A DNA stretch of 64,000 bases from Escherichia coli (GTDB lineage Bacteria; Pseudomonadota; Gammaproteobacteria; Enterobacterales; Enterobacteriaceae), in NCBI RefSeq assembly GCF_003790525.1, contig NZ_CP033635.1; one strand, written 5' to 3'. Positions within the stretch are counted from its first letter, which is position 1; each line of letters begins with the position of its first letter. The notes below the pieces were generated by a model. The model ran no database searches and was not told the origin of the DNA. It was given only the letters and a program-made list of their open reading frames with translations. Of this stretch, positions 4,548-64,000 are shown piece after piece. A program made the position numbers and the translations under genes.

Positions 4548-4595
4548 GCCGGAAGCAGCAAAAAAGCGCATTGCAGAACTGGAGGAGCGCCGGTC

Positions 4596-38795: not shown

Positions 38796-39070
38796 TTGAC
38801 GATAGCTTTTTTCTTTTGTTATTCTGTACCCGCTTTAACTGTCGCTTCGGCGACCAACCAATCTCCCGGTGGTCTGAGAGGGAGGCTTACGCGACCACAC
38901 TGTCATCTCAGGATGACCAGCCAATGTTCCGGCAGTCTGAGAGGAGCGCCTTCGGGTGACTGCAATATCCCATGAGCCTGGAAGAGGATGCCTATATGGC
39001 GGCAACATCCGTTTAGCCTCTGGAAACGGATGTCACCAGTAGCTGGTGACTGAGGTACGTTATTTTTACC
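38796..39070 (+). ncRNA. candidate structured RNA or ssDNA element, two modules (copy 2)
   Basis: -35-like TTGACG 38796; hairpin GTCGC-TTCG-GCGAC; modules matching copy 1 A and B; terminal hairpin GTCACCAG-TAGC-TGGTGAC + T-run near 39031-39068. Confidence 0.45.
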
Positions 39071-39818
39071 TTCGGATTACCCGTACGGTTTTGTATGTCA
39101 TGAAACTTACGAGTTTTCCTCTCGCAGAGTGGCGAAAATGCCTTATATATCTGCGTCTTAAAGATTTTCTGTCTGGCTGCATGAGCTTCTTGTGACTGTG
39201 CGCACGGCATAAGGCCATTTGAAATTTGGCTGCTTGCGTGTGTACGTGGAGTCTGAAGCTGTGCGGCGTCACTTGCGTGCGACCGGAGGGAACACCAAGT
39301 GACGCCACAACAATCTGCCCTGAAAGCAGCATCACGTAAGGCCAGCCAGAAAATCGTCGCTCGTGACCAGCGTTCTGATGACCGTTTCGTCTGTCTGACA
39401 GCGTCTTTCAGTAACGTGTCCATGCCTTTCCGGCGCGTCCGTTTTCACGGACGGCCACGCCGGAATGTCTTTTTAAACTTCATAATACATGAGAGGTAAG
39501 TGTATTAAATAGTTGAAAAAAGGAATAAATATGAAAAATCGTTCTGATGTCGGAAGGCGTCATCGTAAGATGACGGGGAGTAAAAAATCGCCCTGGTGCA
39601 CAGGTAGCGAACTCCTGTAAAAACTCAACATGTGCAAGCTCTGCTACATCGACATCAAACGAGCCAGGAAGGCGAGCAACCGCGTTACAGAGCCGTCCGT
39701 GATGACGAAAAACTAACAATATCAACGATCTGGTCTGTTTATCGGAAGGGCATCTCATGCAGTTGAACTTTCAGAACGGATGGTTTTCTGCATCTTTTTT
39801 AACAGGGGGATTGACGTT

Positions 39819-40736
39819 ATGTCCCGTAAATCGTCACGTTCCAAAGTTGAAGTCTTTCGCAAGTCATTCATCTCACTTGCCCGTGATTGTGGTGGCAGCT
39901 ACGCAACAACCGCTGACAGAATGCGAATTGCCAGATACTTTTTGAATTATTTGCAAGTAAACGGTATCAAACTTCGTCAGACGGGCAGTATTAAGACGAG
40001 GCATATTTCTGGTTATCTTCTCAGCAGGAAAGAGCAGGGGATCTCTCACCGCACAATTCAGAATGAACGGGCAGTTATGCGCGCAATTCTAGAGAAAGAT
40101 GGTCGCCTTAAAATAGCGGATCCGTCCAATCCTTTATTGAGCAATGAAGCTCTTGGACTCAGGGATACATGCCGTGATGGTAAAAAGATACCACTCTCAC
40201 AGGATGAGTTTAATAAAGCCTTCAGTAAGGTTGAAAAAAATAATCCCGGTGTTGCTGCAGTAATGCAAATTTCTTATGTTCTTGGACTGAGGACAAAAGA
40301 AGCTGTTCAGTCTTGTAAATCAGTTAACTCGTGGCTACGTGAACTTGATTCAGGGCATGATTCTCTTCTCGTTGTTTTTGGGACGAAAGGTGGAAGGCCC
40401 AGAGATACAACGATCATTAATCGTGATGCAGTGAAACATGCGCTCATTTATGCAAAAAACATTATGGATAAACAGAATGGTAAACTTATCGATTGCCCCA
40501 ATATTAAACAGGCTATAAACGTATATCGTTACCATGTAAGAAAAGCTGGTTTATCTGGAGTGAAGGCACCACATAGTATGCGTTATCATTTTTCGCAGGA
40601 AGCAAGGCAGTTTTATCGAAAAAGTGGATATGGAGATAAAGAAATTTACGCAAGGGTTTCCATGGACCTTGGTCATGGTGACGGAAGAGGGCGTTATGTA
40701 AAACAGGTCTACTTTAAAGGCGATGATGAGAGCTGA
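39819..40736 (+). CDS. tyrosine recombinase/integrase-like protein
   Basis: ATG 39819 preceded by GGGGGA; SAM-like N-terminal region; candidate catalytic residues GLRTKEA, HSMRYHF, GRGRYVKQVY. Confidence 0.5.
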   Translation: MSRKSSRSKVEVFRKSFISLARDCGGSYATTADRMRIARYFLNYLQVNGIKLRQTGSIKTRHISGYLLSRKEQGISHRTIQNERAVMRAILEKDGRLKIADPSNPLLSNEALGLRDTCRDGKKIPLSQDEFNKAFSKVEKNNPGVAAVMQISYVLGLRTKEAVQSCKSVNSWLRELDSGHDSLLVVFGTKGGRPRDTTIINRDAVKHALIYAKNIMDKQNGKLIDCPNIKQAINVYRYHVRKAGLSGVKAPHSMRYHFSQEARQFYRKSGYGDKEIYARVSMDLGHGDGRGRYVKQVYFKGDDES

Positions 40737-40739
40737 TAT

Positions 40740-41480
40740 TTAAAATGAATCCGGAGGATATGTGTTTTTCGCGAACTTATTAATTTCTGTAATAAGAATT
40801 TCTGATGCACGATTACACATGCTCTCATTAAAGTATCCTATATGGCATTCATGGATGCGGCAATTTAGTTTTCTGGATAGCCATCTGTTTGCCTCGTTAC
40901 GGGATATATTTGTTTTTTGCTGATAGCTGTCAAAAAGTTTACGCACTTGTGCTCTGAGTATTCTCAAATTTTCTTTAGCTGGAGTACCTAATGGTCTCCC
41001 TGAATTTTTATGACATCCAACCCATGCATTGCATGGGCTGCAAATCCAGTAATATTTGTTTTCTGTAGTGGGTGTCGTGGAAAATGGCATAAGTGCACCT
41101 TTTCTGAGTTGTGCCTTATTACCACAGTAAGTGCAGATTACAATTGGACGAACATCTGCAATATTCAGTGCTGCATAAGTAAGACGTTCATTTTTCATCA
41201 TGTTTCGTTTTCCACAGTCAGTGAGAATATGCTTTATTGTGTCTAATTCTTCTCGGAGTATTTTTGAACGGACGCCAGTTCGATAACGCTGTTGAAAGTA
41301 GAGCTCAATATGGCGTAGTTTTATACTATTTATTGATTTTATCTGTATATTGGATTCTTTAAGAAATGAAGCAAATCTTCTGGCTCTCCCCATATATACC
41401 AGTATGTCTTCTGGTGTCGGGGCGCATGCTTTAGCTATTTTGATTAGCTCATCTTTTAATTTTTTGTATTTCGATTTCAT
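40740..41480 (-). CDS. integrase N-terminal-like domain fused to zinc-ribbon domain
   Basis: N-terminal ~100 aa resemble N-terminus of 39819 gene product; C-terminal CTYCG...CSPCN...C..H cluster; convergent, stops 3 bp apart. Confidence 0.45.
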   Translation of the reverse strand: MKSKYKKLKDELIKIAKACAPTPEDILVYMGRARRFASFLKESNIQIKSINSIKLRHIELYFQQRYRTGVRSKILREELDTIKHILTDCGKRNMMKNERLTYAALNIADVRPIVICTYCGNKAQLRKGALMPFSTTPTTENKYYWICSPCNAWVGCHKNSGRPLGTPAKENLRILRAQVRKLFDSYQQKTNISRNEANRWLSRKLNCRIHECHIGYFNESMCNRASEILITEINKFAKNTYPPDSF

Positions 41481-41593
41481 CCTGATATCTCTCTTTAAGG
41501 TTCATTAAGAGTGTTACTGAGTAAAAAAATATCAAATTAAGTATTTATTGTCATTCAGTTGTAGCTTCTCAGCCGCTCCACGACAATAACAAC

Positions 41594-41890
41594 TTGAAGT
41601 TTTATGCAGTTTGTGCTTACAATTTAAACGCTAACTTGTCGCTTCGGCGACCACCAATGTTCCATGTGGCCTGTGAGGAACGCCTTCGGGTGGCCCACGT
41701 CGCTCCGGCGACCACCAATGCTTCATCTGACCTGTGAGGAGCGCCTTCGGGTGGTCAGTTTTACACCTCCTGAGCCTGAAAGGAGCTGTGCGTGCTGAAG
41801 GGATATGTTCCCGGAAGTACGGGCAAATCTGCGCACCTTTGAGAGCAGATGTCACTGCGGTTTTCCGTGATGATGAAGGCTTTTTTATCA
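41594..41890 (+). ncRNA. candidate structured RNA or ssDNA element, two modules (copy 3, divergent)
   Basis: TTGAAG (41594) and TACAAT (41618) promoter-like pair; two modules with stems GUGGCC/GGCCCAC and CUGACC/GGUCAG around UGUGAGGA-CGCC-UUCG-GGUG; T-run near 41881. Confidence 0.4.
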
Positions 41891-46519: not shown

Positions 46520-49435
46520 TTACTGAGTCAGTTTTTTTATCAGGTCGTGAATTTTATCACCTGAAAACTGGGTCATGAAAGTTATCTTTATGGATTTACT
46601 GATTTGTTCGAAGAGTTTCTGTGCATGTTTTATTTTATCGCGTTCTTCATGTCTGAGTTCACGTTTGCCATCAACATTTTTGGTTTCAATAATAAGGTTC
46701 AGATAATCACCCTTTGACGTGTTTACAACATAAGCGAAGTCAGGGGAGTAAGTGTATCCTCCCGCTACAGGAATTTTTATTGAATTTTTGGGGATCTTTG
46801 TGAAGACAATGACTGACCTGACCTCACCCTCTGTCATATTGAGTTTTTCAAGTTCTGAATCATAAAATACTTCTTCAAAAAGATAAGAGTCCAGTGGAGG
46901 GCTTGTATTATCCTGTAAAACGCCAAGATCACTTGACAATACATCAGCAAGATAACCGCCGTCTGCATTGGTGAATTTCGTGGGATGGACAGTTCCTGAT
47001 ATTACATTATACCCAAGGCTGAATTTACTGAACGAGTTATTAAGCAAATACTTGCTGAAACCAGATTTAATTTTTCTGATTGTCTGAATGTTAAGGTATT
47101 CAGTTATATTTATGATGTCTTTTATATCACAAAAAACCTTATGCATGGTGTCATGTTTGACAAAAATAGTCTGTGATAATTTATCAAGGAATTCACGATA
47201 GCTCATTGTGTTTATTTTGTGAAAATTATCCTCATCAACACTGAGAATGCTTTTCGACATTGCCGTATCATTATGGATATAAATTCTTTCAATACGAGTA
47301 TGAGCACCGGATTTGGTAAATCTGTCTGCTTCTTCCAGCATAAACGCTCTGAAAAGGGATAAAAACTCACGTTCACTTTTTATTTTATACTCAATCACGA
47401 CCTTTTGATTGATCAAGTCCCATAGTTCTTTCAGCTCACTGAACTTACCAACACGCATTTTAGTGCGTCTTTTTCCATCAGAGGCTTTTTTTATTTTGCC
47501 TGGTTTCACTCCTGCAGGAAATGCTGCCGGATATCTGGCTTTTAAGCGGCTATAGGCATCTGAATCTTTGAAGTTATCATTATCATCAATGATCTCATCA
47601 TCAAAAATTTCATTCAAGAGTGTTCTGGAGGAAAGCTCCGGATATTGAGACAGGATTTTATCCTTAAGTTCCTGAGTAAACTTACCTGGAACAGTCTCTT
47701 TGAAAGAACTATCGTTGATCTCTTTGACAAGAGAATCGACAAAATCTTTTTCTGTAAAATCAACATAATAGTTGAGGGTAAAATTGCGGTCTTTCACACG
47801 ACACATGTATTCATTCACCGGAAGACGTAAACCACGCCCTACTTCCTGAAGTTTAGATGTGGTGCTACCGCTCGAACGGAGCTTACAAATCTGAAAGACA
47901 TTTGGGTTATCCCATCCCTCACGCAACGTCCATTTAGAGAAAATGAAACGGCGAGGATTTTCTAAAGACAATAGAAGCTCTTTATCATGAAGGATTTCGT
48001 TGATTTCCTGCTCAATTTTATCATCTTTATCACTATTATCTTTTGAAAAATAACCACCATGAACAGAAGATATATCCTTAACAGTTTTTTCAAGGTAGTT
48101 TCTGTAAAACTCATCTTTTTCTGTTTTTAACAGTTCATTTGCTTCTGCCAAAACGTATTCTTCGAACTTAGTTTTCAGGCTTCCTGCAATATCATTACCA
48201 TCACGATAGCCTTCAATGTCATCAATGAAGAAAAGAGTAAGAGGTTTTATGCGTGGCCTTTGTGTCAGATACTCTTTTTCTAACTTAAAGTGTTCTTTGA
48301 CAGCTTTACGTATCATGTTATCAGCAAGTGTCTGATCGTAAGAATAGGGGTTTATCGAACTACCAATTTTTAGCTCAATACCATTACTCAACACTGCTGT
48401 ATTCTTATTTAAAGCATCAAGAGTTAAATCATGGATCGCACTATGCGTCTTAGATAGTGATTCACCTTTGGCTAACTTAAAAATTTTTTTATTATTATTT
48501 TCGTTCAGTTCAAATGTAGCTTCTTTTCCGTCAGATTTGACCAACTTGAGGTTGGCATTACCATCACCAACTATATCCTCAATGTATGCATCAATACCTT
48601 TAACAAGATCTTCATTGAAGGCATCTACGGCTGTAAGACGATAAACTAAGTTCTTATAGCCTTCACTAAAGGTTGCACCATAGCGGATGATATATTGGGC
48701 ATTAAATTTTTGAATATGTTCCCATGTCTTTTTACCAGTAGGAAATTTATGAGGCTCATCAATGATAATGAATGGTTTTATCGCACTAAGTGCAGAAAAT
48801 GGGGTATCAAACTGATTATTAAGCAAGCCAACATCATAAGTGTCAGTTAAAGACTTAGAGTTAATCATCCCTGAATTGATCACAAGAATGTGTATATATT
48901 TCTTATTGAAATTACTTGCTTCAACAAAATCATGGATAGCTTGAGGCATATACGATTTTGTATTTTTACCCGAACGTTTCTGACTTTCAACAACGTAAGT
49001 CTTTAGTTCACGCTCGTAATCATCTCGAAAGTGTTCTTTTATAGCATCGCTTTTTAAAAAGTTAACGGTTCCGGCTTTGATCGATAGGGTAGGAACAATG
49101 ATGATAAACTTGTTAATACCAAATGATTTGTTCAGGTCAAAAATTGTTTTGGTGTAAGTATAAGTTTTACCTGTACCTGTCTCCATAGAAACATCAATTA
49201 CGTTGCTTTTAGCATCGTAATTATCTTTTGAGTGCTCAATACCATTGAACTCCTGAACATTTTTTATGTTGTTGTAGTATTGTTGTTCAGATAGATTCAG
49301 TTCTGGATTAGCTAACAGGCGAATTGCAACATGATCCGTCTGATGAGGTATGGCGGATACAAAGACATTCATTACCGAATCAACGCCAGCCTTTTGATGA
49401 GGTAAATTTTTTTCGAATGTGAACCCTTTAGACAT
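46520..49435 (-). CDS. res: Type III restriction endonuclease subunit Res
   Basis: SF2 helicase motifs METGTGKTYT and IIIDEPHKF; C-terminal PD..(E)xK-like YSPDFAYVV...IIETK; directly downstream of mod; AT-rich. Confidence 0.85.
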   Translation of the reverse strand: MSKGFTFEKNLPHQKAGVDSVMNVFVSAIPHQTDHVAIRLLANPELNLSEQQYYNNIKNVQEFNGIEHSKDNYDAKSNVIDVSMETGTGKTYTYTKTIFDLNKSFGINKFIIIVPTLSIKAGTVNFLKSDAIKEHFRDDYERELKTYVVESQKRSGKNTKSYMPQAIHDFVEASNFNKKYIHILVINSGMINSKSLTDTYDVGLLNNQFDTPFSALSAIKPFIIIDEPHKFPTGKKTWEHIQKFNAQYIIRYGATFSEGYKNLVYRLTAVDAFNEDLVKGIDAYIEDIVGDGNANLKLVKSDGKEATFELNENNNKKIFKLAKGESLSKTHSAIHDLTLDALNKNTAVLSNGIELKIGSSINPYSYDQTLADNMIRKAVKEHFKLEKEYLTQRPRIKPLTLFFIDDIEGYRDGNDIAGSLKTKFEEYVLAEANELLKTEKDEFYRNYLEKTVKDISSVHGGYFSKDNSDKDDKIEQEINEILHDKELLLSLENPRRFIFSKWTLREGWDNPNVFQICKLRSSGSTTSKLQEVGRGLRLPVNEYMCRVKDRNFTLNYYVDFTEKDFVDSLVKEINDSSFKETVPGKFTQELKDKILSQYPELSSRTLLNEIFDDEIIDDNDNFKDSDAYSRLKARYPAAFPAGVKPGKIKKASDGKRRTKMRVGKFSELKELWDLINQKVVIEYKIKSEREFLSLFRAFMLEEADRFTKSGAHTRIERIYIHNDTAMSKSILSVDEDNFHKINTMSYREFLDKLSQTIFVKHDTMHKVFCDIKDIINITEYLNIQTIRKIKSGFSKYLLNNSFSKFSLGYNVISGTVHPTKFTNADGGYLADVLSSDLGVLQDNTSPPLDSYLFEEVFYDSELEKLNMTEGEVRSVIVFTKIPKNSIKIPVAGGYTYSPDFAYVVNTSKGDYLNLIIETKNVDGKRELRHEERDKIKHAQKLFEQISKSIKITFMTQFSGDKIHDLIKKLTQ

Positions 49436-49437
49436 GA

Positions 49438-51474
49438 TTAGTTCCTTACCACCAAATCTAAATCAATAGATTTTTTATTAGCATAACTTTTTAGTGCTTC
49501 ATTGAGTTCCATCTGTTTCGCACTTTCGAAGTTGCTGCCATAAAATACAACTTTGTTAGGGGCAAAGTCTTTGTCTGCATCCAGCTTTTGAAGTAAAGCT
49601 TTCAAAGCCTCACTTGTGAAATTAGGCGCAATTAGATATAGCCGACCATCGCACAAGTGTGCTTTGTAGCCATTAAGGTCAATATCTTCAATTGGTGTTG
49701 TTAGCAAGCTGCCATCATACACGCACCATGTCGTCAATAGAGTGTCATACTGCTCTGGTGTCAATACAGCATCGTCAAAGAAACTAAGATTAGAAAGCGT
49801 AAGTTCAGACTCATCTTTCACTCGAAAATTATGAACTGTTTCAAATATTTTAAATCCCAAATCTCCATTATAATTAGGATTATCTTTTTTCAGCTTTTTT
49901 CCTGCCTTAATAATTCTGTCTTTTGTTATATTGAAGATGGATTTATACCCTTCTTTATAGGCTTGTTTCTTTTTATCTGTTTCTTCATCTAATTGAACAC
50001 AGATGAAGTTTCTTTTCCTGCCGTCTTCAATATTTAACTCCAGAATACCATGAGCTGTAGTTCCAGAGCCAGCAAAAAAGTCAAGATAAATGTCTTTATC
50101 TTCGGCTTTTACTGAACCAAATAGTGTTTTTATTAAACTTGTTGGCTTCGGGTAGGAGAAATATCCTTTCCCACCAAAAAGATTTTCAACCTCAACACCA
50201 CCATCACTTTTAGTTGAAATAATTGATCTTAGTAAAAACTCTTCAACTTCATCTAAAAATTTAACCGAACTGGGTTGGGTGTTTTCTGTACTGGCAAACC
50301 AAATTCCACCACAAATAACGCTACCATCATGTAGTTTTTTGATATCTGCATACTTTCCATCTATTCTTTTTGCAATATGATTAAAAGTGCCTTCTTTCCA
50401 ACGCCAGCCTCTGTCTGGGATTTTGACAGGGTTATTAGTCAAAGGGTGCAATACTTCATACGTGGGTCCAAATGAATCTGCATTAGGCCAGCTCATATTA
50501 ATTTTACCCCATGGCCTATAATCTTCGTTCAAACAGTTGTAAAGAGTAATTCCACGATCATATCCGTTGGAGCTGTAGAATTTTTTGAGTTGCTGCTCTG
50601 CTTTATCTAATGGCACCTTCTCCTTTTTTAACTTTTCAATAAACTGATATACATCATCAATACCATCTTTCCGCATTAAAAATTCTTTACTTATTTCGTT
50701 ATTCTTCGCATAAGCAAGGATGTACTCATGGATATTACCAATACCCTTATCATTTTTAGGGATACGTTTATTCCATACAATATTTTCTATGAAATTTGCT
50801 TCGCCAAAAATTTCATCACAAATAGTTTTAAGTTGATTTAATTCATTTTCGTCAATCGAAATAAATATCACACCATCTTCACGTAGAAGCTCACGAGCAA
50901 TATATAAACGAGGATAAATGAACGTTAACCATGCGCTATGGCTGCTTGAACCATTCGTGGTAAATTCAAGTATACGTTTAGCCTCATCAAGATCGATACC
51001 TGCCAGATCAGAAAGCTGTTCAGGTGTAAACTTGCGATCATCGTTATAGGCGAATCCATCCTTACCTGTATTGTATGGTGGATCAATGTAAATCATCTTC
51101 ACCTTTTCAGAGTAAGCATTAACCATATGCTTCAATACTTCGAGGTTATCCCCTTTGATTAACAGATTCTGACTGTTTTTGTTCTCTTCACGTTGGTTAT
51201 GGTCTTTATCTTCGGAGAGTAATGTCTTCGGCGGCAAGTTAGCTAACAGACGGGCATAGGATTTACCAAGCCAGTTCAGGCTGTATGATTCTTTGGAGAG
51301 TTCAACATCCGATGATTTGACGATTTCAAGCAATTTTTCCTGAATGAACGCTCCATTTTTATCAAAACACTGTGGAAAGTTAGCCTTTAAAATCGCAAGC
51401 TGTTTACTGTTTGTGGTTTCAGTTTCAGAGAAAAGAGTTTCTTTTTTCAGTTGAAATTGGGGTTGTGTATTCAT
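49438..51474 (-). CDS. mod: Type III R-M N6-adenine methyltransferase Mod
   Basis: DPPY motif (IYIDPPYNTG) before FxGxG motif (LDFFAGSGTTAHG); N-terminus resembles EcoP15I-type Mod; GGAGGT RBS. Confidence 0.88.
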   Translation of the reverse strand: MNTQPQFQLKKETLFSETETTNSKQLAILKANFPQCFDKNGAFIQEKLLEIVKSSDVELSKESYSLNWLGKSYARLLANLPPKTLLSEDKDHNQREENKNSQNLLIKGDNLEVLKHMVNAYSEKVKMIYIDPPYNTGKDGFAYNDDRKFTPEQLSDLAGIDLDEAKRILEFTTNGSSSHSAWLTFIYPRLYIARELLREDGVIFISIDENELNQLKTICDEIFGEANFIENIVWNKRIPKNDKGIGNIHEYILAYAKNNEISKEFLMRKDGIDDVYQFIEKLKKEKVPLDKAEQQLKKFYSSNGYDRGITLYNCLNEDYRPWGKINMSWPNADSFGPTYEVLHPLTNNPVKIPDRGWRWKEGTFNHIAKRIDGKYADIKKLHDGSVICGGIWFASTENTQPSSVKFLDEVEEFLLRSIISTKSDGGVEVENLFGGKGYFSYPKPTSLIKTLFGSVKAEDKDIYLDFFAGSGTTAHGILELNIEDGRKRNFICVQLDEETDKKKQAYKEGYKSIFNITKDRIIKAGKKLKKDNPNYNGDLGFKIFETVHNFRVKDESELTLSNLSFFDDAVLTPEQYDTLLTTWCVYDGSLLTTPIEDIDLNGYKAHLCDGRLYLIAPNFTSEALKALLQKLDADKDFAPNKVVFYGSNFESAKQMELNEALKSYANKKSIDLDLVVRN

Positions 51475-54869: not shown

Positions 54870-56072
54870 TCAGAAGGTGAACTGCAACTGTGCGACCGCA
54901 CCGTAAGTGTTGTCCGTGCCGATCAGGCCTGCCACATCAAGGTGAACCACATCAAACGGTGAGATACCAACCCCGGCCGTGAATGCACTGCCGTTGTTGC
55001 TGGCCAGATTCTGGCGGTAACCGGTACGTAACTGTGCCCATTTCCAGGCATTAAACTCAGCACCAACGGCGGCAAACTGACGTTTGCTGTCTGATGTGAA
55101 GCCGCTGGCCGGGGTCAGATCCACATCCAGTGCCGTGGTGAACATGTCGTTGTGCCATGATACGCCGGTCGTTACCTGCGGACGGATCCTGAAGGTTTCA
55201 GTGACACCATGTACCTCTTTGGTCTCAATGCTGCGTGGGATCAGGTTTTGTGCGACCAGACCCAGCGTCCAGTTGTCATCCAGGTCCATGCTGGCACCGA
55301 TATCAGCGTTAATACCGTTTTGGGTGTTGTGGTAACGGTTACCTTTGAATGCGCTGCTGTCATAGTTTTTGATCAGCGTATTGTAGTTAAACAGGTCAAC
55401 ACGCTGGAATTTTGGTGTGAAGCCCAGTGACCATTTTTGTCCGGCCGTTTCCAGTTCAGTGGCCAGCGCAACGCCCACATCGGTGATCAGTGCGGCACGG
55501 GCAAAAGCCTGTGAGGTCAGTCTGTTTTTATCCACATCCTGGCTGCCACTGTCTGCAATGCTTTCCAGATAGTTCAGGTCGGCATCGCTGACTTTACCGT
55601 CGACGCTGACAGTCCCGAACGTTTTCAGCATCAGTGCAGCAGCGAGGGTATCACCGGGAAGGGCCGCCACAGCAGATACCCCGGCCTGTGCGCTGGCATG
55701 GGTGTTCCGGAAGTCCTGCAGTCTCTCTTTCAGGCGGGCCGCTGTCTGCGGTACCCCGGAGTGGCTGTCGACGGCACGGTCGAAGGCTTTCCAGTCATCG
55801 CTGATTTTGTCGGCGTTGTCGGCGATATTACCCGGATCGGACAGCTGCGCACCCACGGACGGAAGCAGAAGACTGAAGTCATCTTTTGCACCGGATTTTG
55901 TCAGCAGTGCCGGGTTTGCCAGTGGGGCCACACCATAGTGAGAGGAGGCAACCCCCGTTCCTCCCATCGCATCATTGCGGGCTTCAAAATATGACGTTGC
56001 TGCAGTCGAATTAAAGGAAAATAAAACGGCAGACGCGATGAGAGTACGGGTAATATGCTTTTTCATCATCAT
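54870..56072 (-). CDS. outer-membrane beta-barrel protein (TraF_2/FadL-like, putative)
   Basis: Signal peptide; C-terminal aromatic end QLQFTF. Confidence 0.45.
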   Translation of the reverse strand: MMMKKHITRTLIASAVLFSFNSTAATSYFEARNDAMGGTGVASSHYGVAPLANPALLTKSGAKDDFSLLLPSVGAQLSDPGNIADNADKISDDWKAFDRAVDSHSGVPQTAARLKERLQDFRNTHASAQAGVSAVAALPGDTLAAALMLKTFGTVSVDGKVSDADLNYLESIADSGSQDVDKNRLTSQAFARAALITDVGVALATELETAGQKWSLGFTPKFQRVDLFNYNTLIKNYDSSAFKGNRYHNTQNGINADIGASMDLDDNWTLGLVAQNLIPRSIETKEVHGVTETFRIRPQVTTGVSWHNDMFTTALDVDLTPASGFTSDSKRQFAAVGAEFNAWKWAQLRTGYRQNLASNNGSAFTAGVGISPFDVVHLDVAGLIGTDNTYGAVAQLQFTF

Positions 56073-56173
56073 TTCAGTTTCCTGTATTGAGGTATTTTGG
56101 GTATAACAACAGAGGGCACGGCTGTGCCATTAAAAATAGTTGGTGTATTATTCCGGTTTGTTGCTCAGTATTA

Positions 56174-56995
56174 TTACCAGGGGGATAACGGAACCCTGAA
56201 TAACGCAGTGGGTAATATTTTTCCTGTTATCAGATATTCTGCCTGTGCCGGAGTGAGTGTTACGGCGCGAACAGGGATATCCGGAGATATTTTTCGGGCC
56301 ATCTGAAACCAGCCTTCTTTTTCTATATCCATTCTGACCGGATATAACGAAAGTACCGGATAAATAATGGTGTTATTAATTTCTTTTTTCTGCCTGAGCA
56401 GAACGCCGCAATATTCTCCGGAATGCGTTCCGGCAAACGGAAAACCATGCCAGAGAATAATGTCCATATTCTCGCGGGCTGAAATAATCCTGCAGAATAT
56501 CTCCTGTGTGGCTGGCCAGTCTCCCGGACGATACAGTGGATAATGCACCCTGCCGTTCAGCCATTCCGGACTGAGATAAAACCAGTCAGCCAGTGCTGCA
56601 AGAATCTCCCCGCTCAGATAGTCAGTGAGTCTGTCCGGCTCCCGGAAGACGGCAGGGCGGATATTCCAGGGGGCCAGTAATGCAGCCATCGTTGTTGCGC
56701 TGATATCATGTGCCTGCATGATGTGCTCCATCCTGCTGAGAAGACGGCGGACGATGTTATCTGCAGGAAGAAACATTTCACTTAACGCGTCTTCGACCAG
56801 GATACGCGTCAGGTCAGAGACGGAAAGAGAAAGCTGTTCGCTCATGATACCAAGGGCATCCCTGACTCCCTGCGGATAACGAACCTGCAGGGGTGTGGAC
56901 TGCAGCTGGCGATGACTGAGCAGGCATTCGCAAATTCGCTCCCTGTCCAGGGAGAGCATCATACGGGCGGCAATACCTGTGCTGTCAGTTTTCAT
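56174..56995 (-). CDS. hypothetical protein downstream of rci
   Basis: 273-aa ORF on same strand as the pil operon. Confidence 0.4.
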   Translation of the reverse strand: MKTDSTGIAARMMLSLDRERICECLLSHRQLQSTPLQVRYPQGVRDALGIMSEQLSLSVSDLTRILVEDALSEMFLPADNIVRRLLSRMEHIMQAHDISATTMAALLAPWNIRPAVFREPDRLTDYLSGEILAALADWFYLSPEWLNGRVHYPLYRPGDWPATQEIFCRIISARENMDIILWHGFPFAGTHSGEYCGVLLRQKKEINNTIIYPVLSLYPVRMDIEKEGWFQMARKISPDIPVRAVTLTPAQAEYLITGKILPTALFRVPLSPW

Positions 56996-57207
56996 TTCAC
57001 CTCCATGCGGGTCAGCGTGTTTTGTTCATAAATTGAGTCTAAAGAGAGTGTTTTTTAAACGGAAGCGAGTTATTTCGATCGTTATGATCGAGTGTGTTTC
57101 AAGAGTGTTTGCAACTCTGTTTTAAGGGCGAATGAAAAGGATTCGGACAGGATGACCGTGATTAATTTAACCCGGAAGCAAAAGTTGATTTTCATTCTGA
57201 TATGCCT

Positions 57208-58332
57208 TCAGTTTGTTAACGGACAAATCATGACCCGTTCATCAATGTTTGCGGGTAGCTCGCCTGGCGTGGGAACGCGTTCACCCCGCTGAGCAGCCTG
57301 TGCCAGTGTGCGCAGCAACAATACGCTGGCATGAGATATAGCCAGTTCCCGGGTTTCTGCACGGGTTTCAAGGTCGAAATCGTGCAGTGTCACGACAAAC
57401 AGCCCGTTTCTGCACCCGACAGTTGCAGGGTAGGGAACAAAATAAGGTGAAATTTTGCTGGTCTGTTTACGCCTTGCATCGAGTTTGCTGACCAGCTGAT
57501 ATGCCCGGAGATGCGTGTACCGTTTTAACATGTTCAGGGAGCGGTGGCCTGAAATAGCGGCAACTTCAATGACATTCAATGTACCAAGTTCGAAAAATCG
57601 GCTGATGGCTTCATGACGGAGATCGTGAAAATGCAGATTTTCTATTTTCAGGTCCAGAAGTGCGGTACGCCAGGCGCTTTTGAAACCGGATGAGGTGTAA
57701 CTGAACACATTGCCGTTTATCTGTTGTGGCAGAATTTGCAGGTAGTTGCGAGCTTTCCGGGAGAGTGGGACATCGCGTGGTAAACCATTTTTCGTTTCAG
57801 GAAGATGCGCCACTCCGTGCTGCAAATCGAGGTGTTCCCAGCGTAATGTGAGAATTTCCCCCTGTCGCATTGCTGTTTCCAGGGCCAGATGGAAGATAAC
57901 GTAGAGCTGCTGATTTTTATCTCTGAAATAGCGGGAGAGTCGGCGTTCTTCGCCAGAAGTCAGGCGACGCTCTCGCCCATTACTGATTTTGGGTTTTCGG
58001 ACCAGTTCAACAGGATTCATACGGCATGTCCCCCATTCCACACGGGCGATATTGAATAATGATGATAAAAGAGCAAGTTCAAGACGGACGGTGTTTCCGG
58101 TGATTTGACGCCCAGTTCGTGGGTTAATTTGAGCCAAACGCTGATCCCGGTAACTGGCGATATAAACGGTCGTGATTTCATCCATATAGCGATCGGCCAC
58201 AGGGTGACGTTTAATCACATTGACGCGATAAACCTCCTGCAGATGCCCTTTTTTATGGACGGAAACGGTTTTCAGGTATTTGTCCAGCGCCCGGTTGAGA
58301 GTCATTTTGCGAATTTTGATTTTTCGAAACAT
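57208..58332 (-). CDS. rci: shufflon-specific tyrosine recombinase Rci
   Basis: ATG 58332 ([30 protein letters not shown]...) matches R64-type Rci; track ORF extends further upstream in frame. Confidence 0.85.
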
Positions 58333-58394
58333 ATCGGCCTTCCACGATAAAAACGGGGAAGGTAGGAATAGTGAAACGGAAATGCAATATCGCC

Positions 58395-58413
58395 GTGCCA
58401 ATCCGGTGTGTGG
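58395..58413 (+). repeat. shufflon sfx 19-bp repeat (left)
   Basis: GTGCCAATCCGGTGTGTGG, matching the R64 shufflon repeat consensus as I recall it. Confidence 0.85.
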
Positions 58414-58746
58414 CGAACGATTGGTGCACCTGACGGAAGTTACAGCAATCTGGGTTCTCACCGGGGAACATTTAACGGGAGAAATAACGGCAGAGGAACT
58501 TTGTTTGTGTACGCTTCCGGTGGAAATGGTGCCGGTGGCGGTGATTGCGCCAACACATCAAATCTTCAGGGCTATGTGAACGGCGCTTTCATTGGTATGA
58601 ATGCCAGCAATAACCCCTCCTACGGAAAGACAGCATTTATTTCATTTGCCGTGCCAGTGGGAGCGTCATATCAAATCATCTCCAGACCAACACAAAATTA
58701 CGCCTGTGGTAACGGTGTTTTCTCTGTGTATGCCTATCAGATGTGA
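58408..58746 (+). other. silent alternative PilV C-terminal cassette
   Basis: ORF reads out of left sfx repeat in the same frame (CQSGVW...) that pilV uses through right repeat; no independent RBS. Confidence 0.7.
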
Positions 58747-58750
58747 GTCC

Positions 58751-60079
58751 CTAGCTGGCTTTAACAATGTAGTTGAATGCAATATTTTTGGGACGCATTT
58801 CTGTGGTACTCCCCTGTGCCCAGTATGGCATACCACTATGATGCCCTTTCAGCCATCCGCCACGTTCGTGATAGACGCCTGATTGATCGGCCTGATAACT
58901 CAGGAGTTGTCTGTTCCGATCACCATCAAGTCCCTTCCCGTTATCCCAGCCACGGATAAAAACACCGCGCAGATCGGGCAATTTACAGCCAGGATAAGCA
59001 CGGGCAAGCTGAGGATACCGGGAACAGGAAAACGACTGGCCGTTCATCAACAGATAGCCTTGTGGAGGAGTGGCAGATGGCCATGGGATAGGGCTTCCCA
59101 CAGGGTAGGATTCAAAGCCAATCCACACACCGGATTGGCACGAAAGTATTGCCCCTTTACTGTCGCGGCCTACAAGTCCGTCCGGTGAGCAGGAAGTACC
59201 TGCGGTGGCTGTTTTTTCCAGCTGTAAATACTCACCCGTGGAAAGACGCCCCTCAGACCGGACAGTTCCACCACTGACTTTTCCTCCTTTGAGCTCTCCT
59301 TCGGTTGTGATCCCTTTGTTGTTAACAGCACGTATCCATTCGCTGTCCGTCATGGTGAAGCCGCCACCATTTGGATGTAACCAACGATTTGATGTGACAT
59401 CGCCTGAAAATCTGGCGTTTTTACCACTGGCTTCATTGATATTGGTGATGCTGTTATTATTCATATCAATGCCAGTATGCATTCTGTTTAAATCGGGTCT
59501 TCCCTGAACGCTGTAGCGGTAAAGCCGATCGCTTTCCTCCAGATCTTTTCCAGCCATTCGCATGGCGATATGCCCCTTGTTGCAGGTAATCTGATAATTA
59601 CTTCCCAGATCGGTCCAGCCGCCAAAGGCACCTGTAACGGAATTATTCTGGAGCATAAAACCACCGAGTCCATTAATCTGGCCCGCTATGCGACGTAACC
59701 CATCTTCTTTAATATCCTGTCCTCCGGTTGTGCAGGTAAGTGCTTCCAGACGACCGGATAAATTATTTTTTCTGATACCGGTAATATAGCTGTGTCCAAA
59801 GGGGGAGCGGGAAAAACCGTTGTTCAGATATCCCTGCTGAATTAATTCATTTACCGTGATGGTTTTACTGGAAAGTGAGCTGGTTTTATCAGCCACATAA
59901 TTCTTTATTGCATTATTATATTCATCAGCATGTAAAGCCGCACTTTGATAAAGTTGTTCATTCAGCCAGTCTTCAATTTCTGAATAAATCATTGGCGTGG
60001 CGATACCAATTACTATCAGGCCTGCCAGAATTTCAAGCAGAATAAAACCTTTATCGTCATCGTGTCTGAATTTTTTCAC
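58751..60079 (-). CDS. pilV: thin-pilus minor pilin/adhesin PilV (shufflon-variable C-terminus)
   Basis: Prepilin-type N-terminus KGFILLEILAGLIVIGIATP; constant region to sfx repeat, then variable 124-aa tail. Confidence 0.85.
   Translation of the reverse strand: MKKFRHDDDKGFILLEILAGLIVIGIATPMIYSEIEDWLNEQLYQSAALHADEYNNAIKNYVADKTSSLSSKTITVNELIQQGYLNNGFSRSPFGHSYITGIRKNNLSGRLEALTCTTGGQDIKEDGLRRIAGQINGLGGFMLQNNSVTGAFGGWTDLGSNYQITCNKGHIAMRMAGKDLEESDRLYRYSVQGRPDLNRMHTGIDMNNNSITNINEASGKNARFSGDVTSNRWLHPNGGGFTMTDSEWIRAVNNKGITTEGELKGGKVSGGTVRSEGRLSTGEYLQLEKTATAGTSCSPDGLVGRDSKGAILSCQSGVWIGFESYPVGSPIPWPSATPPQGYLLMNGQSFSCSRYPQLARAYPGCKLPDLRGVFIRGWDNGKGLDGDRNRQLLSYQADQSGVYHERGGWLKGHHSGMPYWAQGSTTEMRPKNIAFNYIVKAS
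59123..59141 (-). repeat. shufflon sfx 19-bp repeat (right, inverted)
   Basis: CCACACACCGGATTGGCAC = reverse complement of left repeat; lies inside pilV codons CQSGVW. Confidence 0.85.
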
Positions 60080-60726
60080 GTGAATATCTCCGATGTGTGG
60101 ATAACGGAATCAGGGAAGAGGGTCAGCACATACAGGGACGCGCAGAGAAACGGGGCAAACGGCAGCGCCAGCTGGCGTCTGCGACGGCAGAAAATGAGGA
60201 TAAACAGAAATGCTCCGGAGGCTGCGGCGGTGATTATGAGTGGAGTGTGTTGCGGTTGCGTCCACATTGCGATCCCCGCAATCAGGAACACATCACCAAG
60301 GCCGAGCGCTTCCGTCCCTTTCGCTGCCAGAAAAATGCGTCGTAACAGGTATATCATGCCGAACCACAGTGACGCGTTGAGCAGGGCATGAGCCAGTGAG
60401 TCCTGGCTGTATCTGAACGCTGCGCCCAGAATAATAAGAGAAAGCGTGAATATCCGGGGAAGCCGACAGACAGCAATATCCGTCAGCGTCATTACAGTTA
60501 ATAATCCCGTCAGAATGGAAAGGAATAACAGTCCTGTCGCGTCAACACCATATGCACCGTTGAGGCAAATGCTCAGGACAGCCAGAAGACAACAGATGCA
60601 CACCGCAGCGTTGTGTGGGCGGGTATTGTGTACTTCTGATAAATATACTGTGGCGGCGCTGTATGAAAGATACAGAATTGCCGCAAGGACAATCAGGATA
60701 ATGCATATCGGGAGTAATTCAGACAC
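60076..60726 (-). CDS. pilU: prepilin peptidase
   Basis: 216-aa polytopic membrane protein; position as in R64/SPI-7 pil operon. Confidence 0.7.
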   Translation of the reverse strand: MSELLPICIILIVLAAILYLSYSAATVYLSEVHNTRPHNAAVCICCLLAVLSICLNGAYGVDATGLLFLSILTGLLTVMTLTDIAVCRLPRIFTLSLIILGAAFRYSQDSLAHALLNASLWFGMIYLLRRIFLAAKGTEALGLGDVFLIAGIAMWTQPQHTPLIITAAASGAFLFILIFCRRRRQLALPFAPFLCASLYVLTLFPDSVIHTSEIFT

Positions 60727-60738
60727 AGTTACCTCAGC

Positions 60739-61215
60739 TTAATCTTTTCTGAAATACCGGTTGTGGATTATTCGGGCATATATCATGCGCCGGGCTGTGT
60801 TATTTTTGCTGAATCCTGCGTTGTAACTGCCAAGGCATTCCCAGTTAACGCCGCAGCGTTGAAAATGGCGGGCCAGTATCCAGGCACCGGTATGAATATT
60901 CAGGCAGGGCTTTTTAAGCAGTTCATCCTTGTTTTTAATGACGCCCAGTTTTTTCAGTTCAGGAATATGCACTGAATTAATCTGCATTATTCCGTAATCC
61001 GTACTGATGATTTTTCCGGATTTGTTTTTATTGTGATTTATCGCAGTGGCGACCAGGCCGCTTTCCTGCTGTGCAATGGTTTTCAGAAGCTCAGGGGCAA
61101 TCAGGTAACGTTTTCCGGCCTGAATAAAACAGGAATCGAGATGATTATTATTCATCACAGATGCGATTGATGTGTGACTGAATAAAAGCAGGACAGAGAG
61201 ATATAACCATTTCAT
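60739..61215 (-). CDS. pilT: lytic transglycosylase
   Basis: Signal peptide; SLT-like motif AQQESGLVATAINHN...GIMQINS. Confidence 0.7.
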   Translation of the reverse strand: MKWLYLSVLLLFSHTSIASVMNNNHLDSCFIQAGKRYLIAPELLKTIAQQESGLVATAINHNKNKSGKIISTDYGIMQINSVHIPELKKLGVIKNKDELLKKPCLNIHTGAWILARHFQRCGVNWECLGSYNAGFSKNNTARRMIYARIIHNRYFRKD

Positions 61216-61273
61216 TATGATAATCCCGGCAGTGACAGCATCCTCTGGTATTTAAGGATGCTGTCCGGAAACA

Positions 61274-61810
61274 TTAGCTGTTTGTTTCAAGGGTGATGTT
61301 ATTTTTGTCGTTACTACATACTGTTACGGGATCCACAGTAGCCGGGGCGGTATTCATGATTTTGGTAAACATGGATGAACTGCGCAGGCTGTTAATGAGT
61401 TCCACGCAATTTTCTTTCGGTACATTATTGCTGGTAATCGTATAACCATACTTGTCTGCCGTTGCCTTAATGGTGACATCACCGCCCCAGGCATTTTTGG
61501 CCTTGTTACCACCGGCGATCATATCGGCCGGCAGGGAACCACTCTGCGTCAGCGTTTTGATATAATCACTGCTGGTATATTGTCCCTGGAACTTGTACTG
61601 CTTCATTTTGGTTGCAATGGTCTGCAGGTTTTTCACTTCGCGCTGGTTATCACTGGATGACATGGTACTGGACATCTGACTCATTGCGAGAACAACCACA
61701 ATACCGATAATAATCAGTGCGCCGGCAACTTCCAGTAAGGTTAAACCTTTATCCTCCTCTTTCTCTTTTTTTAAAGCAAAATAAGAATAAAGACATGATC
61801 TGAAGTTCAT
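61274..61810 (-). CDS. pilS: type IV prepilin (thin-pilus major pilin)
   Basis: Leader then GLTLLEVAGALIIIGIVVVLA prepilin cleavage/hydrophobic segment. Confidence 0.8.
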   Translation of the reverse strand: MNFRSCLYSYFALKKEKEEDKGLTLLEVAGALIIIGIVVVLAMSQMSSTMSSSDNQREVKNLQTIATKMKQYKFQGQYTSSDYIKTLTQSGSLPADMIAGGNKAKNAWGGDVTIKATADKYGYTITSNNVPKENCVELINSLRSSSMFTKIMNTAPATVDPVTVCSNDKNNITLETNS

Positions 61811-61859
61811 ATATCACTCCTGGTTTATGGGATGTTTCAGAAATATTCTGTATGCGGGA

Positions 61860-62960
61860 TTATTGTTTCAGCATGTCGCTGATACTGTAGATGGCAGATA
61901 TCATGTTAAGAATAAAAAAGAAGACAAAAACTCCTGATATACCGGTAATAATTAATCCAATTCGTTTTACCCGTTTTTTTGCTTCCTCCAGCCACTGATC
62001 GGCATAGAGTGCCATGGTTGCCACACTGTCCTCCCTTTCGGAGTTCAGGAGCAGTTTATTGATGCATATTCTGGACGGAAAATCGTAACCGGAATTTCGC
62101 ATTGCTGTGGCCAGATTCTGACCGGATAATACATGTTTTCGTATTGCCTGAATTCTCTCCTTTAACCATTTATTCTTTTCTGCACCTTTTTCCATTCGGA
62201 GCAGGGCCTGCGAAAGAGGAATATTAATCTGCAGCATGGATGAAATACTGAACAGATAATTCACCCCGTGTAAGGTCTGATACAGTGACCAGGGGGGAGC
62301 CTTGTCCAGCATCCTCCGGCCGGGGCCGGTATACCGGCTGAATGAAAAACGGATCAGAAGCGTCAGGGCGAAAATGGTCCCACAGAGCCAGAATCCGTAC
62401 CCGATGAAAAATTCCGACATGCCGGCAAGCAATTTCATCTGGAATGACCATTTATCTTCTGAAGCAAACGCACTGACGATGGGGATGATACGGGTATGGG
62501 CGTTGTACATATTCACCACACAGAGCGAAAGCAGCAGAAGGGGGTAGAGGCAGACGGCAATGAGGCTGGATGTCATTTCCCGCCGGGCTTTAACGGTTCT
62601 GGCCACCTGGAAAAGGGCGTCGGCAATATTTCCGCGCTCTTCCCCGTTTCTGATTAACGTGGCTTCCTCCGGTGGCACCCAGGTTAACAGGGCACCGGAT
62701 AACATGCCGCTGGCTTTGATGGAATCGATGCATTCTTTTGCCAGAAAATACATGCCGGATGTGCCTTTCTTTTCACCAAAATCGGTTTCGATCTCGCAGA
62801 GAAATTCGAGTGCACGCAGGGACGGCGTTCCGTCACGTATCATGCCGCCCAGGGCTTCGTAGAACTCCACCCGGTTCAGGGCAAAGGTTTTTCTGGCTAT
62901 CCAGACAGTCAGTGCTGTCAGCTCAATGTCGGTGTTGTTGAGTTTTTCCAGAAATCTCAT
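61860..62960 (-). CDS. pilR: type IV pilus inner-membrane platform protein (GspF-like)
   Basis: ATG 62960 directly after pilQ stop; polytopic; track ORF 61860..63026 extends into pilQ. Confidence 0.7.
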   Translation of the reverse strand: MRFLEKLNNTDIELTALTVWIARKTFALNRVEFYEALGGMIRDGTPSLRALEFLCEIETDFGEKKGTSGMYFLAKECIDSIKASGMLSGALLTWVPPEEATLIRNGEERGNIADALFQVARTVKARREMTSSLIAVCLYPLLLLSLCVVNMYNAHTRIIPIVSAFASEDKWSFQMKLLAGMSEFFIGYGFWLCGTIFALTLLIRFSFSRYTGPGRRMLDKAPPWSLYQTLHGVNYLFSISSMLQINIPLSQALLRMEKGAEKNKWLKERIQAIRKHVLSGQNLATAMRNSGYDFPSRICINKLLLNSEREDSVATMALYADQWLEEAKKRVKRIGLIITGISGVFVFFFILNMISAIYSISDMLKQ

Positions 62961-62961
62961 G

Positions 62962-64000
62962 TCAGTGCAGCAGCGTATAGCTGTCCTCGTCGATGGGAGA
63001 GATGTAATGGGCCGCCAGCGGATCAACCTGCCCGCTGTTGATTTTTCCCAGCAGATGCTGATTTCGTGTCATGCCGCCCAGCTCCCGGTGCCAGTAGGTT
63101 CTGGCCTCAATACGCCCCTTTTCCCGGTACAACTGGAAAAAACGGGCATCCGGGGAGATGACTTCTGCGATCACCGTTCGTCCTGTCACGCCACGCCAGC
63201 AGTGCGGGCAGCCTTCATGATTTCGCAGATATACCTGGTCCGGGTTGCAGACGCTTTCCACCAGGTGCCGTTCATCATCCGTGCGCTCGGTAGCCACCTC
63301 ATGCCAGGGGCGACGGCAGTGCGGACATATCAGCTGAACCAGACGCTGGCTCAGCAGGCCAATGAACAGTTGCGGGTCGGCAATCATCCTGGCCTGTACC
63401 CCCTCCATCTCAAGACGTTCGAGGATGTTAATCGGGTCGTTCGCATGGATGGTGGTCAGCATCAGATGGCCGGTCATGGCGGCTTTTATTGCCGTAATGG
63501 CGGAATCGTGGTCGCGGATTTCACCGTTCAGGATCCCGTCGGGGTCAAGACGCAGTGCCGATTTGATGGAGTCCACCCAGCCCTGCGCGGTATCCATGAC
63601 GGCGGTCTGAATGGCACCGGGAATACGCCCTTCCGGCGGGGATTCGATGGTGAACAGCCTGCGACGGGGCAGAAGAATACCGCCGGTATTGTTGAAGCCG
63701 TACTGTTCAAGGTATGCCGCAGAGGCGGTTCTCAGCGTGGTGGATTTTCCTGAACCTGTTGGTCCTGAGAGCGTGATAATACCTTCAGGGCGCTGCAGAA
63801 TACGGCGCAGGGTGCGCTCCTGCTCAGGGTGGTAGCCCAGCATGCTGAAGGTCGGGATTTGCAGACTGTCATCCTTGATCAGACGGAGCACAGCATAGAG
63901 GCCGCCCACGCAGGGATAGTGGGAGTAGCGTGCACCAAACAGACCGGCCAGTTTCAGGTACTGCTCTGAAAGACGCGCATCCTGAGGCACCCCGGGATCA
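62962..64000 (-). CDS. pilQ: type IV pilus assembly ATPase (GspE-like), 5'-truncated by window end
   Basis: Walker A GPTGSGKST; Cys tetrad CPHC...CPHC; gene continues beyond 64000. Confidence 0.75.
   Translation of the reverse strand, partial: DPGVPQDARLSEQYLKLAGLFGARYSHYPCVGGLYAVLRLIKDDSLQIPTFSMLGYHPEQERTLRRILQRPEGIITLSGPTGSGKSTTLRTASAAYLEQYGFNNTGGILLPRRRLFTIESPPEGRIPGAIQTAVMDTAQGWVDSIKSALRLDPDGILNGEIRDHDSAITAIKAAMTGHLMLTTIHANDPINILERLEMEGVQARMIADPQLFIGLLSQRLVQLICPHCRRPWHEVATERTDDERHLVESVCNPDQVYLRNHEGCPHCWRGVTGRTVIAEVISPDARFFQLYREKGRIEARTYWHRELGGMTRNQHLLGKINSGQVDPLAAHYISPIDEDSYTLLH

Follow-up and report, generated by a model that had tools for sequence, protein, structure and literature searches.

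The pilV locus examined here is very probably the site of an active shufflon with a single segment, which serves the type IVb mating pilus of an ICE in the E. coli chromosome. In the window (the whole 64,000-nucleotide stretch of DNA that was analysed), a single invertible segment of 747 bp, counting both of its 19-bp repeats, extends over 58395..59141 and holds two converging tail ORFs. The recombinase Rci would bind the two inverted sfx sites, cut within their 7-bp core GTGCCAA and invert this segment, and the flip would give PilV, the adhesin at the pilus tip, the other of its two receptor-binding C-termini. Since an sfx site lies at the junction of the constant and variable parts of pilV, and the tail ORFs are in the same register, every flip should swap the PilV end. 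As a DNA-inversion switch the locus is ordinary and of a familiar kind, one-segment shufflons having already been described for S. Typhi SPI-7, and the finding matters little beyond the correct annotation of the locus; the public annotation already names this pilV a shufflon adhesin.

The repeat GTGCCAATCCGGTGTGTGG occurs exactly at 58395-58413 (+) and as its reverse complement at 59123-59141, and the original prediction that these inverted 19-bp repeats correspond to the sfx consensus is upheld, as both are exact and the consensus is identical to that of plasmid R64. The sfx pattern GTGCCAATCCGGTNNNTGG with 0 mismatches had 2 matches in the 64-kb window versus 0.00 expected from 100 shuffles, and the mismatch-tolerant search suggested at the outset, run to 3 mismatches, found no further sfx-like site in the window. 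In the arm and core layout described for sfx sites, which are inverted by Rci (PMC11852207), the rci-proximal site (58383..58413, +; an exact pattern match) comprises a variable left arm TGCAATATCGCC (58383-58394), the core (58395-58401) and a conserved right arm TCCGGTGTGTGG (58402-58413). The pilV-proximal site (59123..59153, −) lies on the opposite strand inside pilV codons 314-319, with its core and right arm at 59141-59123 and its left arm GGCAATACTTTC at 59153-59142. The left arms of the two sites are thus unlike each other, and that of the rci-proximal site is the same as at the rci-proximal site of the related loci of APEC E19035 (L001) and E. coli GF60 (L003). As a pair, the repeats can be extended to 30 nt with 87% complementarity. 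In place of the several invertible segments by which a shufflon is recognised, the window has two sfx sites and one segment. The composition profile was unremarkable, and a promoter and terminator scan of 56900-60300 gave sites that were fewer, or no more numerous, than in shuffled sequence, none of them meaningfully placed.

The tip adhesin, a minor pilin of the type IVb conjugative pilus, is encoded by pilV at 58751..60079 (−) and is 442 aa long in the present orientation. Residues 37-317 match Shufflon_N (PF04917) and residues 328-375 match the phage tail Collar domain (PF07484, E=3.3e-12) in Pfam, while NCBIfam returned nothing for PilV or its expressed tail. The right repeat is read in frame within pilV, where it encodes CQSGVW (residues 314-319), and the left repeat opens with the same six codons followed by an open frame to 58746, an arrangement that had been anticipated from the start. 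The expressed, Collar-type tail accordingly covers 58751..59140 (−; 129 aa from CQSGVW) and the silent, A-type tail 58396..58746 (+; 116 codons from CQSGVW to VYAYQM, then a stop). The predicted exchange of C-terminal tails on inversion holds, with lengths past the shared W of 123 aa (expressed) and 110 aa (silent) in place of the 124 and 112 aa first given, so that PilV would change from 442 to 429 aa; the stop codons of the converging tails are close together as claimed, at a distance of 4 nt (GTCC, 58747-58750) and not 5 bp. The two predicted forms of PilV are therefore the 442-aa protein of the window, with a Collar end, and a flipped 429-aa protein with an end of the R64 A type. The comparison with R64 tails proposed earlier was borne out for the silent tail, which has 67% identity with the tail, 117 aa long, that is joined to pilV in the R64 record, and whose equivalents in other records are labelled 'prepilin, shufflon protein A'; it had no Pfam match, no meaningful PDB match and nothing in NCBIfam. 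The expressed tail has no R64 counterpart (0 of the 7 R64 tails matched), and instead resembles the collar of the phage T4 gp37 fibre tip (2XGF, E=2.8e-20), the C-terminal NIAFNYIV strand included.

The shufflon-specific tyrosine recombinase gene rci (57208..58332, −; 374 aa) starts 62 bp from the left repeat, confirming the predicted adjacency to the segment. Its product is 75% identical to R64 Rci end to end, 97% identical to the Rci of the IncK plasmid pCT and 99-100% identical to its counterparts in E. coli ICE relatives. Recombinases of the Rci type are defined by an Arg-His-Arg-Tyr tetrad together with an extra C-terminal domain (PMC11852207). The window's Rci has R156, H236, R239 and Y272 aligned with the R64 tetrad, as well as the C-terminal extension, which aligns with that of R64 with small gaps. 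NCBIfam gave weak XerC/XerA family matches only, which fits a tyrosine recombinase. Rci is apparently intact, and these alignments suggest that the allele is catalytically competent. It carries a lineage-specific substitution, D57Y (codon 58162-58164), where all other homologues examined have D; for example, Y57 is absent from ADI47028.1, which bears the name 'Rci' and matches the window's Rci at 97% identity. A longer rci reading frame of 417 aa (57208-58461) was rejected as a longest-ORF artefact running through the repeat, as homologues and the public annotation agree on 374 aa.

Upstream of pilV, and in the same operon, lie genes for a prepilin peptidase, a lytic transglycosylase, the major pilin PilS, a PilR-like platform protein and a PilQ-like ATPase (60076..63990, −), their names being transferred from the 99.3-99.9% identical APEC E19035 locus. 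Downstream of rci are traF and traE homologues (54870..56995, −), arranged as they are in R64 and pCT and 98-99.8% identical to those of pCT. The window is collinear with the APEC E19035 chromosome from 21240 to 58414 at 97-99.9% identity, with gaps at about 38958-41637, and in APEC E19035 the annotation of this region places a TIGR037xx/PFL_47xx ICE backbone, TraG-N and a conjugative ATPase beside the pil operon. On the basis of annotation transfer from APEC E19035, by which the window's ICE backbone genes were identified, the locus is assigned to a chromosomal ICE of E. coli of the PAPI-1/pKLC102/SPI-7 type. No tRNA genes were found in the window, so the ICE attachment site is out of view.

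Rather than in the single orientation that would count against a switch, near-identical loci are found in both orientations. For example, the predicted flipped allele of 429 aa is realised in GF60 with 2 aa differences, and each of the two pilV–tail junctions is matched in one piece over its full length, at 99-100% identity, in different chromosomes and plasmids of E. coli, one junction in APEC E19035 and the other in TUM1886 and GF60. Among relatives with an identical PilV, the orientation of the neighbouring segment also varies (L020 versus L021 and L022). In addition, many database PilV entries are partial and end at residues 306-312, just short of the repeat, which fits assemblies breaking at the switch; the switch would explain short-read assembly breaks at pilV. 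The orientations compared here come from different assemblies, rather than from the reads of a single culture, and differences between assemblies suggest that flipping also occurs within this strain.

Relatives that are 99.7-99.9% identical to the locus have two or four segments, and the window corresponds to the APEC E19035 locus minus 535 bp, from sfx(4396,+) to sfx(4931,+). In APEC E19035 this stretch holds the 74/87-aa segment (4415-4903). The deletion junction is a hybrid sfx site, whose left arm comes from the first of the two sites and whose right arm comes from the second, and there is no other scar. Because the missing 535 bp are precisely those that separate two direct sfx sites, the 'minimal' state is a deletion derivative of a two-segment ancestor. 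The locus thus shows how a segment can be lost in nature with breakpoints precisely at direct sfx sites. It is conceivable, if improbable, that the 535 bp were excised by Rci itself at the direct sites, that D57Y relaxed its directionality, and that segments bounded by sfx sites move as cassettes between ICEs and the IncI-complex plasmids residing in the same cell. Wild-type Rci is reported not to catalyse excision between direct sfx sites, the asymmetry of the sites being the reason. Cassette exchange would explain why the segment is 99-100% identical while flanking genes are 60-93% identical, with identity steps at sfx sites, and the segment is in fact 99-100% identical to that of plasmids pCT and pXDL-2, which makes it a near-identical segment common to an ICE and IncK/IncI-type plasmids. 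The drop in identity to pCT at the pilV-proximal sfx site was nevertheless rejected as proof of sfx-mediated exchange, since the identity breakpoint relative to pXDL-2 and to the ICE variant E23 falls at about 59369, inside pilV, and also fits ordinary homologous recombination.

The loss of one segment from the locus, together with a lineage-specific substitution at an otherwise invariant position of Rci, could also indicate a frozen remnant, that is, a one-segment locus that no longer inverts, perhaps because D57Y impairs Rci, with PilV locked as the Collar type. There is a precedent for this in S. Paratyphi C, for which a preprint (bioRxiv 10.1101/2025.10.13.681940) reports a one-segment shufflon that is inactive and no longer inverts. 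We nevertheless consider such a remnant extremely improbable, as both 19-bp repeats are perfect, the aligned active-site residues of Rci are intact, and two contigs whose Rci is exactly that of the window, Y57 included, have the segment at 100% identity in opposite orientations (L012 in the same orientation as the window, L011 inverted). These contigs show that the switch has flipped in this lineage, with at least one inversion after Y57 arose, if Y57 arose once. A different doubt concerns the one-segment state, as shufflons pose known assembly difficulties (PMC5430464), all examined relatives with an identical PilV have two segments, and among the best matches none of the complete RefSeq genomes of E. 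coli shows the exact structure of the window. The real genome might accordingly contain two segments, of which the 535-bp one collapsed in an assembly of mixed orientations. This is very improbable, given that the window's exact proteins lie on a 5.54-Mb contig representing a finished chromosome, that the junction is a clean hybrid sfx site, and that one-segment shufflons exist in other E. coli ICEs too, those of E23 and related strains. In three further Y57-lineage assemblies the segment likewise lies next to rci, although a reshuffled two-segment locus could look alike. An active switch with a single segment remains the preferred reading of the locus.

What an active one-segment switch would do is suggested by analogy with R64, TP114 and PAPI-1, from which it is expected that the two PilV ends recognise different structures on the cell surface, lipopolysaccharide being the most likely. 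PilV tails have been found to bind the LPS of the recipient (PMC5430464, PMC5297154), and alternative recipient specificity of the two tails, as originally proposed, is plausible by the same analogy. The silent tail is only 67% identical to its R64 counterpart, so ligand specificity is not transferable from R64. The pil operon is presumably expressed. If the two ends do bind different structures, donors of a single clone would spread their chances over two classes of recipient or surface; an E. coli ICE able to present two alternative pilus-tip adhesins may in this way widen its range of mating or adhesion partners. Alternatively, the switch may mainly regulate whether PilV is made, rather than choose a specificity. 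In the S. Typhi model, rapid inversion reportedly suppresses pilV expression, and pili without PilV are said to mediate self-association. The architecture of the window is as in S. Typhi, with one segment and rci immediately downstream, and identical sfx sites should favour frequent recombination. However, both tails are intact ORFs and have been kept at 99-100% identity across ICE and plasmids, which argues for selection on both proteins, and a mainly regulatory role is therefore judged unlikely. The regulatory and specificity roles of the switch are not mutually exclusive.

A close parallel by published description is S. Typhi SPI-7 (PilV1/PilV2), which likewise has one segment, two 19-bp inverted repeats and an adjacent rci, all on an island of the ICE type that lies in the chromosome and carries a type IVb pil operon. 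The original reading of the locus as a one-segment shufflon like those of SPI-7-type islands agrees with its two sfx sites and with an ICE family that includes SPI-7. In the preprint cited above, which summarises Tam et al. 2004, the S. Typhi shufflon is given one segment and two repeats that differ by one base, whereas the repeats of the window are identical to each other. Unlike the S. Typhi locus as described, the form in the window is a demonstrable recent deletion derivative of a two-segment locus.

R64 (IncI1; comparison sequence NC_005014) shares with the window the gene order traF-traE-rci-shufflon-pilV-pilU, the 19-bp consensus and CQSG(x)W in frame at the junction. In contrast to the one segment and two sites of the window, R64 has four segments, seven sfx sites and seven PilV tails, and it is an IncI plasmid, whereas the window locus belongs to an ICE in the chromosome whose conjugation machinery is of another sort (TIGR037xx genes). 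The IncK plasmid pCT (NC_014477) has traF-traE-rci and the same A/Collar segment at 98-100% identity, likewise next to rci and in the same orientation, but with three segments and six sfx sites in total, and identity to the window is no more than 60-80% in pilU and the constant region of pilV. The ICEs ICEEc2, PAPI-1 and pKLC102 have the same family of backbone genes and pil cluster as the window; the ICEEc2 pilus acts in mating (PMC4458695) and PAPI-1 PilV2 binds LPS (PMC5297154). PAPI-1 is described with a 10-gene pil cluster and a single fixed pilV2, with no rci listed, while the window has a shufflon.

A pilus adhesin tip built on a phage tail-fibre collar domain links pilus and phage receptor recognition, a link already noted in 2023, when a PilV/phage tail collar fusion targeted by programmed inversion was reported from genome CP084655.1 (Milman et al. 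2023, PMC9881135). That case has in common with the window the pairing of Shufflon_N (PF04917) with Collar (PF07484) and a gene altered by inversion; unlike there, the partner tail in the window is a classical A-type tail.

The invertible segment (58395-59141, 747 bp counting both repeats) is bounded by two 19-bp sfx sites, with GTGCCAATCCGGTGTGTGG on the + strand at 58395-58413 and a perfect inverted copy of it at 59123-59141. The pattern GTGCCAATCCGGTNNNTGG was matched exactly twice in the 64-kb window and in none of 100 dinucleotide-preserving shuffles, and the repeat follows the published sfx layout of a variable left arm, then a 7-bp core and a conserved 12-bp right arm. Beyond the repeats the flanks are weakly complementary (30 nt at 87%). 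A search for mismatched sites found no further sfx-like sequence in the window at ≤3 mismatches, in agreement with a single segment. Read on the - strand, the right repeat encodes Cys-Gln-Ser-Gly-Val-Trp, residues 314-319 of the 442-aa pilV ORF in its expressed orientation (58751-60079, -), and the left repeat (+ strand) encodes the identical six codons followed by 110 further codons, with a stop at 58744-58746. The expressed and silent tail ORFs are convergent, their stop codons lie 4 nt apart, and past the shared Trp they run for 123 and 110 residues, respectively, giving a PilV of 442 or 429 aa. The original prediction located both repeats, pilV and rci correctly and was right about the sfx match, the shared reading frame and the convergent ORFs of a two-tail switch with closely spaced stops, but its tail lengths (124 and 112) and stop spacing (5 bp) require these small corrections.

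The adjacent rci gene (57208-58332, -), also anticipated, is a 374-aa ORF starting 62 bp from the left repeat. Its product is 75% identical to plasmid R64 Rci across the full length, 97% identical to that of IncK plasmid pCT and 99-100% identical to E. coli chromosomal relatives. Residues R156, H236, R239 and Y272 align with R64 Rci and the protein carries the C-terminal extension characteristic of shufflon invertases, both being recognised features of these enzymes (PMC11852207). The substitution D57Y (codon 58162-58164, -) sets it apart: Asp occupies this position in the Rci of R64 and pCT, in that of four E. coli relatives, and in a further 14 proteins of its 90% cluster. The exact Y57 Rci was found on four assemblies, and NCBI holds a 5.54-Mb E. 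coli contig on which both Rci and PilV are identical to those of the window. The Y57 assemblies appear alike in having the window's segment beside rci, while the D57 relatives that were read have two segments.

Four lines of evidence, all from different assemblies and none from within one culture, indicate that the segment flips. Inversion in silico yields a 429-aa PilV that is encoded, with two substitutions, by E. coli GF60, where the Collar tail (the end expressed in the window) occupies the silent position. In a search of E. coli complete genomes, the matches to both pilV/tail junctions were single and full-length (99-100% identity), with one junction in APEC E19035 and the other in TUM1886 and GF60; each was also matched by many plasmids. 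An Rci identical to that of the window, private Y57 included, is encoded on three short contigs of other assemblies; one (L012) runs on into the segment as in the window and another (L011) has the whole segment inverted, both at 100% identity, so that if Y57 arose once, at least one inversion must have followed it. The fourth line is twofold. Among relatives with an identical PilV, the extra rci-proximal 74/87-aa segment lies in opposite orientation in L020 versus L021 and L022, which is independent evidence of active shuffling in this ICE shufflon family; and numerous PilV entries in databases are incomplete, ending at residues 306-312, just short of the repeat, which is where assembly would be expected to break at a switch of mixed orientation.

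Within PilV, the Pfam domain Shufflon_N spans residues 37-317 and a phage tail Collar domain spans residues 328-375, inside the variable tail. The expressed tail (58751-59140, -) is homologous to the tip of the T4 long tail fibre gp37, the receptor-binding part (PDB 2XGF, E=2.8e-20), including its C-terminal NIAFNYIV strand. It is much shorter, with 129 aa against 242 residues in the 2XGF chain, and most of the stretch between the two matched parts lacks a counterpart. A PilV-Collar fusion was reported as a programmed-inversion target in 2023 (PMC9881135). The silent tail had no relative in Pfam or PDB searches. Comparison with the R64 tails, suggested in the original prediction, gives a counterpart for one end: the silent tail shares 67% identity with the 117-aa tail that is joined to pilV in the R64 reference, and other records label a fragment of it 'prepilin, shufflon protein A', whereas the Collar tail resembles none of the seven. 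Related RefSeq records show no more of the silent A-type tail than a 79-aa 'hypothetical protein' (58507-58746, +; WP_000271302.1), and they call the Collar tail, when silent, a partial 'phage tail protein' pseudogene; both labels conceal alternative pilV ends. The 'constant' part of pilV also contains a hypervariable stretch (59369-59654, residues ~142-237) only 59-63% identical to pXDL-2 and pCT; in pXDL-2 the adjoining 227 nt are 98% and the segment 99-100% identical. This hypervariable stretch may form a second specificity-determining or antigenic region.

Textbook Rci/sfx inversion is the best-supported account of the switch. Rci would pair the two inverted sfx sites, exchange strands within the core and invert the segment and, as the pilV-proximal site marks the border between the constant and variable parts, every inversion would swap the C-terminal end of the adhesin. 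R64 tails bind defined recipient LPS structures and set recipient range in liquid matings (as summarised in PMC5430464), the PilV2 C-terminus of PAPI-1 binds LPS (PMC5297154), and a part in mating-pair formation has been reported for the ICEEc2 pilus (PMC4458695). Homology of the Collar tail to the T4 fibre tip fits a role in surface recognition, and by analogy the two tails of the window may likewise bind distinct recipient surfaces. In S. Typhi, inversion rate has reportedly been proposed to decide whether PilV is made and hence self-association, and similar control of PilV production may be an alternative or additional role of the window's switch.

All testable defining features of a shufflon were found except multiple segments; the first reading of the locus was correct and the kind was already known. 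The same one-segment form is described for S. Typhi SPI-7 (bioRxiv 10.1101/2025.10.13.681940). APEC E19035 and GF60 each carry two segments with four sfx sites, and YZLc1-3 carries twice as many of both (four segments, eight sites); contigs whose PilV is identical to that of the window carry two segments along with a D57 Rci. Relative to APEC E19035, the window lacks exactly 535 bp, which is the start-to-start distance between the rci-proximal sfx and the next directly oriented site. What remains is one hybrid site: its left arm (TGCAATATCGCC) comes from the first of the pair and its right arm (…GTGTGG) from the second, placing the crossover within a shared 15-base stretch containing the core. 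This loss is the expected product of recombination between direct sfx sites and, together with the relatives bearing more segments, makes the 'minimal' form a derived state here rather than an ancestral design. Rci could have catalysed the deletion, but site asymmetry normally prevents its action on direct sites (PMC11852207); slippage or short-homology recombination could also have produced it. Segment loss is known in IncI2 plasmids (PMC5430464), and other E. coli ICEs (E23 and related strains) have independently reached one segment from a different tail pair. Exchange with plasmids is suggested by the traF-traE-rci-segment block (54870-59142), which is 98-100% identical to pCT; over 59142-60726, in the constant region of pilV and in pilU, identity to this plasmid drops to 60-80%. 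The E23 ICE is the reverse mosaic (pil genes 98-99.7%, rci/traEF 81-88%), with a breakpoint near 59369 in pilV, and the invertible segment is 99-100% identical among ICE, pCT and pXDL-2. The shufflon end of the operon thus seems to have been repeatedly exchanged between ICEs and IncI-complex plasmids; sfx-mediated cassette exchange was considered as the cause, but homologous recombination explains these data equally well.

All of the window beyond ~21 kb is collinear with the APEC E19035 chromosome (97-99.9% identity), whose annotation places an integrative conjugative element there: the TIGR037xx/PFL_47xx gene set, a conjugative ATPase and TraG-N adjoin a type IVb pil operon that runs from a pilL-like gene to pilV, then come rci, a traE-like gene and traF. 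The element is of the PAPI-1/pKLC102/SPI-7 kind, and the order traF-traE-rci-shufflon-pilV-pilU is common to the window, R64 and pCT. Its cargo includes a type III restriction-modification pair (46520-51474, -; 971-aa endonuclease and 678-aa methyltransferase), with ArdA antirestriction and toxin-antitoxin remnants nearby, the names being transferred from the 99.7% identical APEC E19035 annotation. A non-collinear stretch at 38958-41637, holding 318-aa and 246-aa ORFs, may be a small insertion or replacement inside the ICE, and a ~250-bp repeat at 41608-41883 matches three places in the APEC E19035 element.
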